Source: an uncultured Actinomycetes bacterium (GTDB lineage Bacteria > Actinomycetota > Thermoleophilia > Gaiellales > Gaiellaceae). Taken from it: a DNA stretch of 64,000 nt. Of the stretch, positions 18,455-64,000 are shown in pieces. How positions within the stretch are numbered: position 1 is the stretch's first letter; every line of letters begins with the position of its first letter. Under the pieces are notes generated by a model. The model was not told the DNA's origin and searched no databases. It saw nothing but the letters and a program-made list of their open reading frames with translations. A program made the translations under genes and the position numbers. The stretch is from contig CAWFFI010000006.1 in assembly GCA_963815005.1 (NCBI GenBank), positions 139,231 through 203,230 of the forward strand. Direction: 5' to 3'.

Positions 18455-18487
18455 GGACACGGCCGGTGCCAGGCACCGGACGTGTCC
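18455..18487. repeat. 33-bp palindrome, repeat family copy 1 (one mismatch)
   Basis: GGACACGGCCGGTGCC-A-GGCACCGGACGTGTCC; 15 of 16 arm positions are complementary. Confidence 0.9.
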
Positions 18488-18555: not shown

Positions 18556-18588
18556 GGCCATGTCCGGTGCCTGGCACCGGACATGGCC
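18556..18588. repeat. 33-bp perfect palindrome, repeat family copy 2
   Basis: GGCCATGTCCGGTGCC-T-GGCACCGGACATGGCC. Its centre is 101 bp from the centre of copy 1. Confidence 0.95.
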
Positions 18589-36093: not shown

Positions 36094-36308
36094 GCGACGG
36101 GGCCAGCCCCCGGTACGCGACCGTGTCGGAGTCCGCGGGCGCGGCAGGCGCGAGGGTCCGTTCGCCGGGCTCCGCGATCAAAGGATGGAGCTAACGCGGA
36201 GCGTTAGCGAGGGCCGGACCGATTCGGCCGGGGATGGCCGCAGGCCACCACCGACCGAACGCCCGGGGCCTTCGCCGAGAGCATCGCAAGCGGAGCAGCA
36301 CGGAGGAT

Positions 36309-36330
36309 GGCCGAGACCGCGCTCTCGGCC
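36309..36330 (-). terminator. Terminator-like hairpin after the opp operon (GGCCGAGA-6 nt-TCTCGGCC)
   Basis: Perfect 8-bp stem 26 nt downstream of the oppF-like stop. It shares the core GAGAGCGCGGTCTC with hairpins at 63337-63356 and 63648-63666. Confidence 0.45.
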
Positions 36331-36355
36331 GTCCGGAGTTCGTTCGAGATCGTCT

Positions 36356-37379
36356 CTACGACGCAGTCGTGGAGACGATCTCGAGCGGCCGGACGATCTC
36401 GGCGAAGTGGCAGGCCGTCGGATGCCCCTGCCCCCGGTCGATCAGCGCCGGCTCCTCCTCGGCGCAGATCGTCCTGCGCCTTCCAGCAGCGCGTGCGGAA
36501 GCGGCACCCGGAGGGCGGGTTCGCCGGACTCGGCACGTCGCCCTCGAGCACGATCCGCTCGCGCTTGCCCCGCTGGCTCGGCTCCTCGATCGGCACCGCG
36601 GAGAGGAGCGCCTGCGTGTACGGATGGGAGGGCATGTCGTAGATGTCGTGCTTCGAGCCGATCTCGACCACCTTGCCGAGGTACATCACCGCGACGCGGT
36701 CGGAGACGTGCCGGACGACCGAGAGGTCGTGGGCGACGAAGATGTACGTGAGCCCGAAGTCGCGCTGCAGCGACTCGAGCAGGTTCACGACCTGGGCGCG
36801 GATCGACACGTCGAGCGCCGAGACCGGCTCGTCGAGGATGATCAGCTGCGGGCTCAGGGCGAGCGCGCGGGCCACGCCGATGCGCTGGCGCTGACCGCCC
36901 GAGAACTCGTGCGGGAACCGGTTCGCGTGCTCGGGCGAGAGGCCGACGGTGCGGAGCAGCTCGTCGACGCGCTGCTTGCCCTGCTCGCCCTCGTAGCGGT
37001 TGTGGATCCGCAGCGGCTCGCTGACGATGTCGCGGACGGTCATGCGCGGGTTGAGCGACGCGTACGGGTCCTGGAAGACGATCTGCAGCTCGCGGCGCAC
37101 GTCGCGCATCTGCCGTCGCGACAGGCTCGTGATGTCGCGCCCGTTGAAGACGATCTTCCCGGCGGTCGGCTCGGTCAGCTTGATGATCGTGCGCGAGAGC
37201 GTCGTCTTGCCGCAGCCGGACTCGCCGACGAGCCCGAGCGTCTCCCCCGCCCGGATCGAGAGGTCGACGCCGTCGACCGCGTGGATCTGCCCGACGGCCC
37301 GCTTGAGAAGGCCGGCCCGGATCGGGAAGTACTTGACGAGCCCCTCGACGCGGAGGATCTCCTCGCCGGATCGCGGCAC
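36356..37379 (-). CDS. Oligopeptide/dipeptide ABC transporter ATP-binding protein (OppF/DppF type), frame break near 36470
   Basis: Walker [10 protein letters not shown]. After ..RCWKAQD the C-terminus ([26 protein letters not shown]..) is in the +1 frame, ending at TAG 36356-36358. Confidence 0.8.
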
Positions 37380-52245: not shown

Positions 52246-52278
52246 GGCCATGTCCGGTGCCAGGCACCGGACATGGCC
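52246..52278. repeat. 33-bp perfect palindrome, repeat family copy 3
   Basis: GGCCATGTCCGGTGCC-A-GGCACCGGACATGGCC, the reverse complement of copy 2 at 18556-18588. Confidence 0.95.
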
Positions 52279-52349: not shown

Positions 52350-52376
52350 CACGTCCGGTGCCTGGCACCGGACGTG
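52350..52376. repeat. 27-bp perfect palindrome, repeat family copy 4
   Basis: CACGTCCGGTGCC-T-GGCACCGGACGTG. Its centre is 101 bp from copy 3. It is flanked by a further inverted pair, GACACGTCTC (52333-52342) / GAGACGTGTC (52384-52393). Confidence 0.9.
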
Positions 52377-61908: not shown

Positions 61909-62716
61909 ATGGCCGGGCTGACATCACGCGCGTCGCTGATCGTGAAGGCGAAGGTCTCGAAGCTGCTGAACCGGGCCGAGGACCCGACGGAGACGCTCGA
62001 CTACTCGTACGAGCAGATGCTCCAGCAGCTCCAGAACGTCAAGCGCGGAGTCGCCGACGTCGTGACCGCGAAGAAGCGGCTCGAGCTGCAGACCGACAAG
62101 CTCGAGCAGAACGTCGTCAAGCTCGAGACGCAGGCCCGGCAGGCGGTGGCTGCGAACCGCGAGGATCTCGCCCGCCAGGCGCTCGAGAAGAAGGCGGCGA
62201 CGCAGCAGCAGCTGCAGGGGCTCGACGCGCAGGTGAAGCAGCTCGCAGGCCCAGCAGGAGCAGCTGATCTCCTCCCAGCAGACGCTCGAGACGAAGATCG
62301 AGGCGTTCCGGTCGCAGAAGGAGGTCATCAAGGCGCAGTACTCGGCCGCCGAGGCGCAGGTGCGGATCGGCGAGGCCGCGACCGGGATCGGCGAGCACAT
62401 GTCCGACACGGGTCTCGCGATCCAGCGGGCGAAGGACAAGACCGAGGAGCTGCAGGCGCGCGCGTCGGCGATCGACGAGCTGACCGCGGCCGGCGCCCTC
62501 GAGGACTTCACCGCCGGCGACCAGACCCAGCTCGACCGCGAGCTGGCGCAGATCTCGACCTCGGGCCAGGTCGACGACGAGCTCGCGAAGCTGAAGGCCG
62601 AGGTCGGCTCGGGCGACGGCGCGAAGGCGCTCGGCGACGGCGGCGGCGCCGAGGCGGCTCCCGCCGAGGCCGTGGCCGAGAGCGAGCCGGCGGCAGACGA
62701 CGCGGCGACCCAATAG
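61909..62716 (+). CDS. pspA: PspA/IM30 family protein, frame break near 62248
   Basis: N-terminus (..AKVSKLLNRAEDPTETLDYSYEQMLQQLQNVKRGVADV) and coiled-coil repeats. The continuation (AQQEQLISSQQTLETKIEAFRSQKEVIKAQYSAAEAQ..) is in the +1 frame, ending at TAG 62714-62716. Confidence 0.85.
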
Positions 62717-63289
62717 CCCGCCTCGGCGACATCCTCTTCGGGCGGAAGAAGCTCGCCGAGCCGGCCGGCGACCGCCTGTTCGCGCTCGTGACCGCCGCGG
62801 TCACGCTCGACGTCGAGTGCGCGCCTGAAGACGGCGGGCGTCGGCGCCGTGATCTTCAAGCCGCTCTCGGCGGGCGAGTTCACGCAGGTCGACCAGGACG
62901 TCGAGGAGCTCCTCCAGTCGGTCGCGGCCGGCTCCGGCTCGACGCTCGACCGCAAGAAGGACTCGTTCGGGTTCGAGTGGGTGATCGTCCACGACCCGGA
63001 TCTCGAGGATCAGGTGACGGCGGTGCACGCGGTCGCCTCGGAGTTCCAGGCGCGCGGCTTCGGCGGCCAGCTGCTCGCGGCCGCGTTCCGCTTCGAGGGC
63101 CGCGGCGCCGAGCCGACGTACTGGATCTACGGCTTCAAGACGGGCACGTTCTGGCCGTTCGTCCCGTCGGGCAAGGCGCAGGAGCGCGACAACGCGCGCG
63201 AGCTGGAGCTGAAGGCGAAGCTCGAGCCCGAGCTGCCGATCGAGCCCGACCTGTCGAAGTGGCTGGCGCTCTTCGACGCTCCGCTGTAG
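62713..63289 (+). CDS. PspA-associated conserved protein (partner downstream of actinobacterial pspA), no canonical start, frame break near 62820
   Basis: Blocks I recall from this family: ILFGRKKL, LFALVTAAVTLD, FGFEWVIVHD, GTFWPFVP, LSKWLALFDAPL. The homology begins at an ATA codon that overlaps the pspA TAG. Confidence 0.6.
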
Positions 63290-63315
63290 CGCGGAAACGC
63301 TGCGCGTTTCCGCGC
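63289..63315 (+). terminator. Terminator-like hairpin after the pspA operon
   Basis: Perfect 12-bp stem GCGCGGAAACGC / GCGTTTCCGCGC with a TGC loop, starting at the last base of the stop codon. No U-tract. Confidence 0.5.
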
Positions 63316-63690
63316 TGAGAGACGGAACTGCGCGCGCCGGAGAGCGCGGTCTCCGGCGCGCTCCGTGCGGATTACCTTGGGATGCTCTGGACGGGATGCC
63401 TGCCCCGGCGCGGGCGATCGTGCCCTGCGGGCAGGACCACCCGCTGGTTCACCGGAGCGTAAGCGGGCTTACGCTCCGGTCTTGGCGGTTGTGAAGCTCG
63501 AAGCGGCCGAGGCGTGGGCGTAACGGAGCCGCAGGCCCGTTACGCCCACGCGAACGAAGCGGGTGGACCCGCCGTAGGCGCGTCCGCCCGCGACGGGGCA
63601 GGCCTCCCGTCCAGAGCACCCGAAGACAAGCGAGCACGAAGCACGAGCCGGAGACCGCGCTCCCGGTCGTGCGGAGTTCCCTATCCCAGC
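63316..63690. repeat. About 375-bp imperfect palindrome (two diverged inverted copies of a roughly 180-bp hairpin-rich unit); candidate structured RNA or MITE pair
   Basis: Matching inverted blocks: 63324-63329/63675-63680, 63337-63356/63648-63666, 63379-63416/63585-63621, 63437-63445/63558-63566. Arm-internal perfect hairpins at 63452-63479 and 63512-63551. Confidence 0.8.
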
Positions 63691-63692
63691 GA

Positions 63693-63711
63693 GGAACCGC
63701 TCCGCGGTTCC
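63693..63711 (-). terminator. Terminator-like hairpin after htpX
   Basis: GGAACCGC-TCC-GCGGTTCC, 4 nt downstream of the TAG at 63715-63717 (minus strand). Confidence 0.5.
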
Positions 63712-63714
63712 GAG

Positions 63715-64000
63715 CTACGCGACGGGCCTGCCCATCTCGCGGGCGATCGCCGAGAGGGCGGCGAGGCGCTTCTCCATCGGCGGGTGATCCATGAAGAGCT
63801 CGCTCATCTGGGTGCGCCAGTTCGTCGGCACGATGAAGAACGCGTTCATGCCGGCGACCTCGCGCAGGTCGCGCTGCGGGATCTGGGTGATGCCGCTCGC
63901 GATCTTCTGCAGGGCGCTCATCAGGTTCTCGGGCGCGCCCGTGATCACGGCGGAGCCGCGGTCGGCGGCGTACTCGCGGTAGCGGGAGATCGTCCGGATC
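63715..64000 (-). CDS. htpX: Zinc metalloprotease HtpX, C-terminal part; 5' end lies outside the window
   Basis: The minus-strand ORF is open to the window edge. ..SRYREYAADRGSAVITGAPENLMSALQKI..MDHPPMEKRLAAL is the typical HtpX C-terminus. Confidence 0.8.
   Translation of the reverse strand, partial: IRTISRYREYAADRGSAVITGAPENLMSALQKIASGITQIPQRDLREVAGMNAFFIVPTNWRTQMSELFMDHPPMEKRLAALSAIAREMGRPVA

Follow-up and report, generated by a model that had tools for sequence, protein, structure and literature searches.

The hairpin-rich spacer between the convergent genes pspAB and htpX is most probably a full-length copy of a dispersed non-coding Gaiellaceae/Thermoleophilia repeat, which was gained at a CTAG and spread as a non-autonomous mobile element. 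It covers positions 63288-63716 of the window, by which we mean the whole stretch of 64,000 nucleotides that was analysed. The earlier note had left the choice between a structured RNA and a pair of inverted repeat elements, and had suggested a search for other copies as a MITE/REP test. Many such copies exist in Gaiellaceae MAGs, and the window itself contains a third unit. The spacer is thus one copy of a dispersed repeat family and not a unique RNA gene, and the supposed pair is better described as a single element with long inverted ends.

Inverted structure of the pspAB-htpX spacer

The neighbouring genes encode, as previously described, PspA_IM30, PspAB (PF22742) and Peptidase_M48/HtpX, with pspAB and htpX convergent, and we recovered all the paired blocks that had been listed between them at the same coordinates. 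Aligned with its own reverse complement by BLASTN, the spacer (63290-63714) is ~72% identical (71.8%, 439 columns, E 2.5e-53). The repeat finder identified three pairs of inverted arms: 63286-63360/63644-63718 (75 nt, 80% complementary), 63376-63424/63577-63625 (49 nt, 86%), and 63430-63445/63558-63573 (88%). It also found two perfect local hairpins (63451-63464/63467-63480, 14 bp, and 63512-63526/63537-63551, 15 bp) and one gene-proximal hairpin on each side, perfect on the left (63288-63300/63304-63316, 13 bp) and 85% paired on the right (63688-63700/63704-63716). The fold computed by RNAfold has -289.3 kcal/mol on the + strand and -286 on the - strand, against shuffle means of -183 (z -17.9 and -17.4; none of 100 shuffles was equally good). 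The short ORFs of the spacer (32-62 aa) are not conserved features of the repeat family.

Frameshifts in at least three genes of the window suggest indel-prone sequencing, and would be in line with an inverted duplication produced by noisy long-read assembly. Yet a fold-back artefact would be near-perfect, whereas the arms are only 72-86% complementary and contain indels. The same two-ended architecture is found here and at ~40 other sites in independent assemblies, short-read ones included (L014, L090, L192). Because the arms are 28% different and the architecture recurs in short-read assemblies from other studies, we regard an artefact as extremely improbable.

Each gene had also been credited with its own terminator-like hairpin. 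The GC-rich stems are there, but neither is followed by a T-run, and the terminator scan of 63100-63900 returned no site with the GC-rich stem and U-tract of a canonical intrinsic terminator, so that they are terminator-like only in the loose sense of a GC-rich stem. Nor do they belong to the individual genes: each is the outermost module of the repeat. They resemble bidirectional intrinsic terminators in having GC-rich perfect stems directly behind both stop codons. They differ in the missing U-tract and in origin, as they are homologous across a repeat family and did not evolve separately at this locus.

Architecture and census of the repeat family

The family was found through a degenerate end motif, whose scan of species-representative genomes gave at least 117 stretches; over all loci, the pspAB set and the window included, at least 103 matches passed the hairpin filter. 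A unit profile searched with nhmmer then counted at least 146 units in 95 loci, with a non-coding interior of hairpins that show compensatory changes. The family consensus is ~450 nt long, with inverted ends of ~90 nt each, and 18 elements from different MAGs can be aligned end to end. From outside to inside, an end unit consists of an (N)TAG tag, a hairpin 1 that is variable and always paired, GGAACTSCGC, a hairpin 2 with conserved apex GAGAGCGYGGTCTC and covarying lower stem, and GCTCCGTGC; in short, hairpin 1, GGAACT, the covarying hairpin 2 and then CTCCGTGC. The interior holds ~5 more conserved hairpins.

The window copy matches positions 2-432 of a full-length profile, made of 18 full-length elements from other MAGs, at 63288-63699 (envelope 63287-63719) with E 1.4e-41 on the + strand; on the - strand, E is 2.4e-33 (nhmmer). 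It can be aligned over its whole length with 20 other elements, and has the following parts:

63287-63289, + strand: TAG stop of pspAB; the T is flank, AG are the first two bases of hairpin 1
63288-63716, unstranded: full-length ~450-nt Gaiellaceae palindromic repeat, AG...CT termini, A-type arm left (nhmmer, family alignment)
63288-63316, + strand: left hairpin 1, the outermost module on this side, with a perfect 13-bp stem and a TGC loop (repeat finder, family alignment, covariation)
63324-63368, + strand: left inner terminal repeat (unit profile match 63285-63373, E 4e-20), with GGAACT (63324-63329), hairpin 2 (63330-63361, conserved apex GAGAGCGCGGTCTC) and GCTCCGTGC (63360-63368)
63376-63445, + strand: GATGCTCTGGACGGGATGCCTG... 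block of the left interior, with its complement at 63558-63625; it aligns with the A-arm in the family consensus (repeat finder, profile alignment)
63451-63480, unstranded: perfect 14-bp local hairpin, equivalent to GGCTAAGC...GCTTAGCC of the family (repeat finder, profile alignment)
63512-63551, unstranded: central hairpin GCGTGGGCGTAACGG...CCGTTACGCCCACGC, 15 bp, counterpart of the family's GGCGGCGGCGTAAC...GTTACGCCGCCGCC hairpin (repeat finder, profile and family alignments, columns 288-328)
63558-63625, unstranded: right interior, complementary to 63376-63445, containing CGCCCGCGACGG, which is common to the family's B side
63635-63680, - strand: right inner terminal repeat (unit profile match 63633-63719 on -, E 1e-10; three-way alignment), with GGAACT (AGTTCC 63675-63680 on +), hairpin 2' (63641-63672, 85% paired) and GCTTCGTGC (63635-63643)
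63688-63716, - strand: right hairpin 1, 11/13 paired, with the family-typical TC/TC internal mismatch (repeat finder, alignments)
63715-63717, - strand: TAG stop of htpX (CTA on +); CT are the last two bases of the element
36294-36366, - strand: third, diverged end unit (BLASTN 71% over 111 nt, E 8e-8; nhmmer E 1e-8)

The third unit lies directly 3' of the stop of an ABC-transporter ATPase gene (36356-36358), within another convergent spacer (36095-36355), and one arm of its hairpin 1 (36344-36384) is formed by the last codons of that gene.

Of the pairs made by adjacent units, 42 are convergent, 2 tandem and none divergent, and their outer-to-outer length is most often ~450 nt. Hairpin-1 modules are ~370 nt apart, and the stretch between the inner edges of the end units, 270 nt at the median, is conserved. 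Single MAGs have at least 6-8 loci with family units. Among the matches listed, all loci matching the unit profile are from Gaiellaceae, Gaiellales, Thermoleophilia or unclassified actinomycete MAGs. Plasmid and phage collections and IMG/VR contained no family members, and an exact 23-mer of the interior block had no match in the species-representative genomes. A regular expression written to count solo hairpin-1 modules was uninformative: it proved too strict for type 1, and its type-2 "solo" matches were the same palindromes on the opposite strand. The median identity of copies within a MAG is 70%, and none exceeds 90.5% over 200 nt; this absence of near-identical copies within a genome gives no sign of recent transposition.

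Some copies depart from the common arrangement. Hairpin-1 types 1 and 2 stand in tandem in four loci (L085, L155, L117, L162), L133 has an interior that differs from that of the other copies, and the interior of the element is flipped between sister species. A-type arms carry a T-rich stretch (TGTTTTGCTTTGG) after hairpin 2.

Gain of the element between two stop codons

The orthologous pspAB-htpX spacers of related species measure 0 nt in 10 species, at most 6 nt in 15, and over 2 kb at the long end of the range. In eight empty sites (..ATCTAGG/C..), the stops of pspAB and htpX overlap as CTAG, leaving no spacer. Filled and empty sites are interleaved in a neighbour-joining tree of the flanking genes, and one tight clade of this tree includes spacers of 0 nt (L061), 283 nt (L059) and 27 nt (L045). 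The window copy was therefore gained at a place where the two stops overlap as C-TA-G in relatives without the element, and its AG...CT termini rebuild TAG for both genes. Such presence/absence polymorphism at orthologous sites is what is expected of a MITE, as are the dispersed, multi-copy distribution, the lack of coding capacity, and the terminal inverted repeats (~90-nt ends, in the window 63285-63373 on + and 63633-63719 on -).

Across the family, units lie preferentially right behind stop codons and in spacers that separate convergent genes. The stop of a same-sense gene lies within 60 nt of 93 of the 146 units, and is exactly flush with 33 of them; TAG makes up 66% of these unit-associated stops against a background of ~36%. 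About 23 of the 37 classifiable unit pairs lie between convergent genes and 0 between divergent ones, as counted from crude gene calls (with a strand call from GC1-GC2 plus GC3), on which all these context statistics rest. This strand call replaced one based on GC3 only, because the antisense frame shares third positions. The terminus profile reads T 70%, A 86%, G 87% and then CTCGCG, so that ~30% of termini lack the T. NTAG precedes hairpin 1 in 57% of termini (GTAG 22, CTAG 16, ATAG 7 and TTAG 4 of 86). Both CTAG and TA are scarce: the window has 16 CTAG where 161 are expected, a tenfold depletion, and TA is depleted 2.3-fold.

An empty CTAG beside a filled TA[G...C]TA fits a TA duplication, and fits equally a T and A split by an AG...CT element. 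Since a duplication flanking G...C and a split by AG...CT yield the same sequence, a target duplication cannot be demonstrated here. In hairpin 1, the terminal A and the T opposite it in the stem change together (columns 2-32: AU 51, CG 20); the A therefore belongs to the element. This bears on the possibility that the family is a MITE derived from IS630/Tc1-mariner, mobilised in trans by a DDE transposase whose target is TA, preferably within CTAG, and whose insertion duplicates that TA. The element is non-coding and multi-copy with long inverted ends, the empty sites are CTAG, and the filled site has TA on both sides if the element is taken as G...C. IS630 and ISY100 are documented to insert at TA, to duplicate it and to prefer CTAG (PMC2170065), and RUP is an IS630-linked MITE (PMC2229807). 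Yet the A of the TA is part of the element, and the T is found in only 70% of termini. A DDE transposase binding duplex ends would conserve their sequence and not permit covarying stems. Moreover, the loci examined showed no autonomous copy or IS630-type ORF, and we found no young copies. We consider an IS630 origin doubtful.

Hairpin pairing, proposed mobility and related systems

The stems of the family comprise 2,821 pairs, of which 97% are Watson-Crick, with 20 G-T and 33 A-C. Paired stem cells amount to 94.2% against 73.6% in shuffles and ~40% in slid controls, and double changes occur in 358 cells against 116.5 +/- 7.5 (0 of 500 shuffles). Hairpin 2 covaries at 6-7 positions in 80 units. 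The remark that mismatches in the window copy give no G-U evidence for either strand extends to the whole family. Watson-Crick stems with compensatory changes and almost no G-U point to hairpins at the DNA level.

The same stems could be kept by RNA folding, if the elements were functional structured RNAs, either a multi-copy cis-acting 3'-UTR module or an sRNA. The many compensatory changes, in at least 6 hairpins of copies only ~70% identical, would be expected from this, and the elements are found 3' of genes, where transcription is probable. The T-rich TGTTTTGCTTTGG 3' of hairpin 2 in A-type arms goes in the same direction, as does one stem position (columns 140-175) at which 14 of 21 elements have T-G when read on the A-to-B strand. 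Against it, G-U makes up ~1% of stem pairs and is no commoner than A-C, which is G-U on the other strand. As the two ends carry the same modules on opposite strands, neither strand stands out. Many species have an empty orthologous site, the copy of the closest relative has uncompensated stem mismatches, and there is neither an Rfam match for either subtype nor a promoter or terminator consensus. Searches of the spacer, the whole window and an A-B type copy against Rfam 15 at permissive thresholds gave only chance-level matches, the best in the spacer being P2 sRNA (23.2 bits against a gathering score of 80, E 0.39). We thus think RNA-level function of the family decidedly unlikely. As for a unique RNA gene at this locus, the lack of an Rfam match, the empty sites in relatives, the equivalent strands and the lack of a promoter or terminator consensus led us to abandon it: one-strand G-U tolerance, an own promoter or terminator and conserved presence at the locus were all missing. 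Judging by sequence alone, we also dropped dif/Xer sites, CRISPR repeats and an integron attC, whose RYYYAAC/GTTRRRY is not fitted by the central GCGTAAC/GTTACGC hairpin.

The preferred reading remains that of a non-autonomous mobile element which spread by landing on a rare TA within (C)TAG. If the hairpins act as DNA, the mobilising enzyme would rather be of a hairpin-recognising RAYT/HUH type than a DDE transposase of the IS630 type. We found neither a transposase nor a RAYT: in ~100 loci, no pair of units 1-3 kb apart flanks an ORF, and among the ~100 loci listed there is no related autonomous element with a transposase. E. coli RayT had no tblastn match in 1.4 Mb of collected loci. The long pspAB-htpX spacers carry no transposase, only ordinary cargo ORFs that resemble, by eye, adenosine deaminase, GNAT acetyltransferase, glutathione S-transferase, cytochrome c and adenylate cyclase. 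A 180-aa ORF between units in L097 was likewise set aside, as it resembles by eye a hexapeptide-repeat acetyltransferase and not a RAYT. The sampled copies are old, and the element may no longer move.

The nearest known kinds are GTAG-tagged REP dimers (REPINs), BIMEs and hairpin-forming MITEs. Like REP dimers (PMC3733652, Di Nocera et al. 2013; PMC3116915, Bertels and Rainey 2011), the elements are GC-rich palindromes with an outer (G)TAG tag, inverted in pairs with the tags outside, diverse within a genome, and located between convergent and unidirectional genes but not divergent ones. In REPs, as here, the flanking ORF frequently takes its TAG stop from the tag (PMC3733652). However, REPs have 20-40 bp and dimer spacers of 20-100 bp, whereas here two-hairpin ends of ~90 nt enclose a conserved multi-hairpin "spacer" of ~270 nt; the orientation is that of a REPIN doublet, with conserved sequence in place of its short spacer. 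Hairpin 1 has 26-32 nt, G precedes TAG in only 47% of termini, and AG is paired, unlike in REPs, whose stems frequently have the G-T pairs (PMC3733652) that account for ~1% here. REPIN systems also have a RAYT, and none was found among the loci searched.

Enterobacterial BIMEs are likewise mosaics of palindromic units and other conserved motifs at gene 3' ends, with modules stacked and swapped between copies (here in L085, L155, L117, L162 and L133), but they share no sequence relation with the element, whose order and length are much more fixed. The MITEs Correia/NEMIS, ERIC, RUP and RPE (Delihas 2008, PMC2229807) are also non-coding, multi-copy, intergenic and TA-associated, and form a long stem-loop from terminal inverted repeats. 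They measure 100-160 bp and have short inverted repeats, against ~450 nt and structured 90-nt ends here, where in addition the copies are old and diverged and no cognate IS was identified among the loci. Hairpin-forming MITEs are co-transcribed with neighbouring genes and affect mRNA processing and stability (PMC2229807). In transcripts from either gene, hairpins 1 and 2, neither with a T-run behind it, would form directly behind the stop codon. They would probably serve to end transcripts in both directions or to stabilise their 3' ends, a role also proposed for REP/BIME elements.

A further possibility, which we rate as tentative at best, is that the family is more than decaying selfish DNA and consists of long-lived, vertically kept DNA hairpin modules. 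These would be either a REPIN-like population with a hairpin-recognising enzyme (HUH/RAYT-type or new) or a host-recruited cassette providing stop codons and a two-way transcript end. Three observations would fit: full pairing of seven hairpins is retained in copies of ~70% identity, the elements home in on stop codons, and the interior is flipped between sister species. The REPIN-like form would place the enzyme outside the phyla named for tagged REPs in PMC3733652; the main text of that paper does not contain the word Actinobacteria, and we take the phylum as not reported there.

In summary, this is a new family of a familiar kind, probably once mobile, that is scattered through Gaiellaceae genomes. 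Our literature search found nothing specific on repeats of Gaiellales or Thermoleophilia and no record of this family. For annotation, the spacer should be masked as a repeat and not called as an RNA gene. If a cognate enzyme exists, REP/RAYT-like systems would be extended to a lineage for which we found no report. The Gaiellaceae are abundant, almost uncultured soil actinobacteria, of whose repeat content we found no description, and the family accounts for many of the long hairpin-rich spacers between convergent genes in their MAGs, and probably for some contig breaks. Its covarying, G-U-free hairpins make a good test case for hairpin selection at the DNA level, as in REPINs, and the family is a clean example of an element that, in a 72% G+C genome, probably lands on scarce TA/CTAG sites and restores the stops of the genes on either side.

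The palindromic spacer between pspAB and htpX

The spacer at 63288-63716 separates pspA and pspAB (PF22742) from a convergent M48/HtpX peptidase gene. Each of the paired blocks that the earlier note had listed was confirmed at its position, and a repeat finder returned the following features:

63286-63360 with 63644-63718: long-range arm pair, 80% complementary
63376-63424 with 63577-63625: long-range arm pair, 86% complementary
63430-63445 with 63558-63573: long-range arm pair, 88% complementary
63451-63480 and 63512-63551: perfect local hairpins
63288-63316 (perfect) and 63688-63716 (85%): gene-proximal hairpins

The palindrome is real and highly non-random. Aligned with its reverse complement, the spacer shows 71.8% identity in 439 columns (E 2.5e-53). 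Folded as RNA, it reaches -289 kcal/mol on the forward strand and -286 on the reverse, whereas dinucleotide shuffles reach -183 (z about -18). The search of the spacer and the rest of the window against Rfam gave no family match other than one tRNA. Consensus scans of the spacer found neither a sigma-70-like promoter nor a stem-plus-T-run terminator; the gene-proximal hairpins, described earlier as terminator-like, therefore deserve that name only loosely, as GC-rich stems.

The window also contains frameshifts in pspA (62247-62264), pspAB (62823-62825) and an ABC-transporter ATPase gene (about 36440), with orthologues aligning in two frames around each point, which suggests either an indel-prone (long-read) assembly or pseudogenes.

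A dispersed family of two-ended elements

A BLASTN comparison of the spacer with the window, a check for other copies proposed in the earlier note, revealed one more copy, the third, at about 36235-36341 (E 8e-8), which has diverged further. It again lies in a convergent-gene spacer and begins at the adjacent gene's stop codon, in sense orientation. Read in the sense of the neighbouring gene, the three window copies share a common order: stop codon, hairpin 1, GGAACTSCG, hairpin 2 (apex GAGAGCGCGGTCTC), CTCCGTGC, GATGCTCT... We call this end of about 90 nt a unit. Hairpin 1 of the third unit (36344-36384) has an 18-bp stem: in gene sense, the last six ATPase codons form its 5' arm and the TAG stop falls in its 3' arm, so that the hairpin overlaps the coding sequence.

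Scanned over one genome per species, a degenerate core pattern matched at least 117 stretches, and at least 103 matches passed a hairpin filter across all loci examined. A 95-nt unit profile detected at least 146 units in at least 95 loci, which, among the matches listed, all come from Gaiellaceae, Gaiellales, Thermoleophilia or unclassified actinomycete MAGs; single MAGs carry at least six to eight separate unit loci each. Pattern matches in other phyla lay within coding sequence, had no hairpin and were never detected by the profile. The plasmid, phage and IMG/VR collections held nothing similar to the unit family.

The units are the long inverted ends of a larger element. Among the matches listed, unit pairs less than 1.5 kb apart were convergent in 42 cases, tandem in 2 and never divergent, and the outer-to-outer length peaks near 450 nt. 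Eighteen elements from different MAGs align end to end, with an asymmetric interior between the two ends that has conserved hairpins (TGCGCTCGCGC...GCGAGCGCA, GGCTAAGC...GCTTAGCC, GGTTCGA...TCGAACC, GGCGGCGGCGTAAC...GTTACGCCGCCGCC and GCGGGCGAGCA...TGCTCGCCCGC). The profile of these 18 elements matches the window at 63288-63699 over profile positions 2-432 of 450 (E 1.4e-41 on the forward strand, 2.4e-33 on the reverse), and the spacer is therefore one complete member of this dispersed family. The alternative reading as a repeat-element pair was thus right about the repeat, but what had been taken for a pair is a single element bounded by long inverted ends. The two hairpins at the tip of the window copy are internal hairpins of the family, and this copy is more palindromic than most because the A-type block (an arm subtype), GATGCTCTGGACGGGAGGCCTG, is present in both arms.

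The stems are maintained through compensatory change. The hairpin-1 and hairpin-2 stems of 136 units contain 2821 pairs in all, of which 97% are Watson-Crick; the exceptions include 20 G-T and 33 A-C pairs, the latter being G-U on the opposite strand. The statement that arm mismatches favour neither strand held in this larger sample, where neither wobble intermediates nor a strand preference appeared. The fraction of paired cells in an alignment of 80 units is 94.2%, compared with 73.6% in shuffles and about 40% in slid controls, and 358 cells carry double changes, against 116.5 +/- 7.5 (0 of 500 shuffles). An alignment of 21 elements, including that of the window, has 98 consensus pairs, 41 with compensatory changes. 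Stem sequences vary freely yet remain perfectly complementary, and judged by this pattern they look like DNA rather than RNA hairpins. It is what would be expected of hairpins read as single-stranded or cruciform DNA (as by REP/REPIN systems and HUH enzymes) or of self-correcting palindromes, and not of an RNA gene; the freely varying stems also argue against a DDE transposase recognising the ends as plain duplex sequence.

No young, near-identical copies were seen in the first 200 nt of units, and hence nothing points to a recent burst: identity has a median of 70% within a MAG (maximum 90.5%) and 67.5% between MAGs (maximum 89%). In the closest relative, locus L001 (PspAB 93% identical), identity to the window is 88.7% along the left arm up to position 63473, with stem mismatches lacking compensation. 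The palindrome of L001 (3620-4299) is broken within the hairpin matching 63451-63480 and followed by low-G+C DNA, which looks like a later insertion into the element. This DNA has a textbook terminator (aaaaagccctggaaacggggcttttt) and an ORF whose match to the antitoxin domain Xre_MbcA_ParS_C is weak and below the cut-off (21.9 bits).

In two sister MAGs (L005:3433-3857 and L014:3433-3886), flanks 93.75% identical surround interiors that are oppositely oriented at the pspAB-htpX site; aligned on the reverse strand, these are 78.5% identical across 386 nt, and the outer hairpin-1 ends align directly. This could reflect either an interior flip by recombination between the inverted hairpin-2 repeats or two independent insertions. 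The window also holds another palindromic repeat family, unrelated to the first, with 14-bp stems (GGCCATGTCCGGTGCCAGGCACCGGACATGGCC). At each of two loci (18455-18487 and 18556-18588; 52246-52278 and 52350-52376) it has a pair of copies spaced about 100 nt apart, and a related piece lies within the element of locus L133.

Gene 3' ends and the pspAB-htpX site

Elements prefer gene 3' ends and avoid divergent spacers. With a crude gene caller (GC3 >= 0.82-0.85 and GC1 > GC2), a gene of the same sense stops no more than 60 nt from the outer end in 93 of 146 units, exactly flush in 33; the stop of these genes is TAG in 66%, against about 36% for other genes of the same loci. By our own count on these crude calls, 37 pairs can be classified: the flanking genes converge in about 23 and run in the same direction in about 14, and in none do they diverge. 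The terminus profile of 86 non-redundant units reads T (70%), A (86%), G (87%), then CTCGCG, with no conservation outside it other than G (47%) or C (28%) right before the T. In the window (72% G+C), base composition predicts 161 CTAG sites and 16 are present, a tenfold deficit; TA is depleted 2.3-fold (529 against 1237). If an element landed on TA or CTAG, it would therefore encounter stop codons far above chance.

Using the PspAB protein as query, we retrieved 80 orthologous loci, all from Gaiellaceae/Thermoleophilia MAGs. Where htpX is still convergent, the two stops are 0 nt apart in 10 species and no more than 6 nt apart in 15; in the others the distance ranges from 20-700 nt to more than 2 kb. 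Eight empty sites read ...ATC TAG G/C..., the TAG of pspAB and the stop of htpX (CTA on the forward strand) overlapping as CTAG. In the window the stops are 427 nt apart: ...CTG-T[AGCGCGG......CCGAGCT]A-CGCGAC... The element was gained exactly at the TA common to the overlapping stops, and its AG...CT termini regenerate both TAG stops. A unit adjoins htpX in some relatives and pspAB in others, and both ends are present in L005, L014 and L031. In a neighbour-joining tree of the pspA-pspAB region, filled and empty sites are interleaved: one tight clade unites L061 (0 nt), L045 (27 nt) and L059 (283 nt), L035 (0 nt) stands beside L031 (451 nt), and L038 (0 nt) is near the window. Given this variable spacer and interleaving, the site is a hot spot of gain and loss, and not the home of an ancestral RNA gene. 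The first proposal, an unknown structured RNA, is not supported: the site is empty in many relatives, Rfam offers no match, and G-T pairs are no commoner than A-C.

The site is a general insertion hot spot. Its long spacers contain unrelated ordinary genes, among which no transposase was found; in those of 1-2 kb (L028, L032, L034, L043, L047, L060, L062, L070) the cargo differs by species and resembles, by eye, adenosine deaminase, adenylate cyclase, cytochrome c, alpha/beta hydrolase and others. Three short spacers look like remnants: L074:3439-3457 (TAGCTCGACGCGCGGTTCCGAGCTA, both termini, 19 nt between stops), L017:3448-3489 (a solo hairpin 1) and L027:3448-3512 (a truncated right end). 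Their sequences suggest frequent internal deletion. The superfamily is wider than the unit profile. Long palindromic spacers that the profile did not find occupy the site in L012 (3439-3943), L002 (3439-3727) and L006 (3439-3828); they retain the hairpin-2 apex (GAGCGCGGTCTG/C), and the L012 spacer equals the window copy in folding strength (-0.71 kcal/mol per nt).

Affinities, mobility and possible role

In its logic the family comes nearest to the GTAG-tagged REPs arranged as head-to-head dimers. The Gaiellaceae element differs in its ends (90 nt with two hairpins, against 20-40 bp), in its conserved structured interior (about 270 nt, against a dimer spacer of 20-100 bp) and in the G of the GTAG tag, which is not fixed here; we know of no RAYT for it. 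G-T pairs, frequent in REP stems, are rare here, and the phyla listed for REPs do not include that of the host (PMC3733652). The Correia, ERIC and RUP MITEs share inverted ends, a long stem-loop and TA association, but are three to four times shorter and linked to known IS families. BIMEs are alike in their mosaic, module-swapping character, seen here as stacked hairpin-1 types and a different interior in L133. The element is in no named family, and these likenesses and large differences make it a new family of a known kind, the REPIN/BIME/MITE-like palindromic intergenic repeats.

The element would be non-autonomous and spread by transposition, with TA or (C)TAG as the probable target, and would probably be acted on by a hairpin-recognising enzyme; no transposase was found among the loci examined. 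A TA duplication in the style of IS630/Tc1 (PMC2170065) and a split T|A would yield identical sequence; the A changes in step with the far side of hairpin 1. Transcripts from either gene would form hairpins 1 and 2 right after the stop codon. By analogy with REP/BIME and ERIC/Correia (PMC3733652, PMC2229807), a role as two-way transcript end or 3' stabiliser is plausible. The hairpins lack U-tracts. For annotation the finding is useful; for the mobile-DNA biology of an under-studied lineage it is of mild interest.
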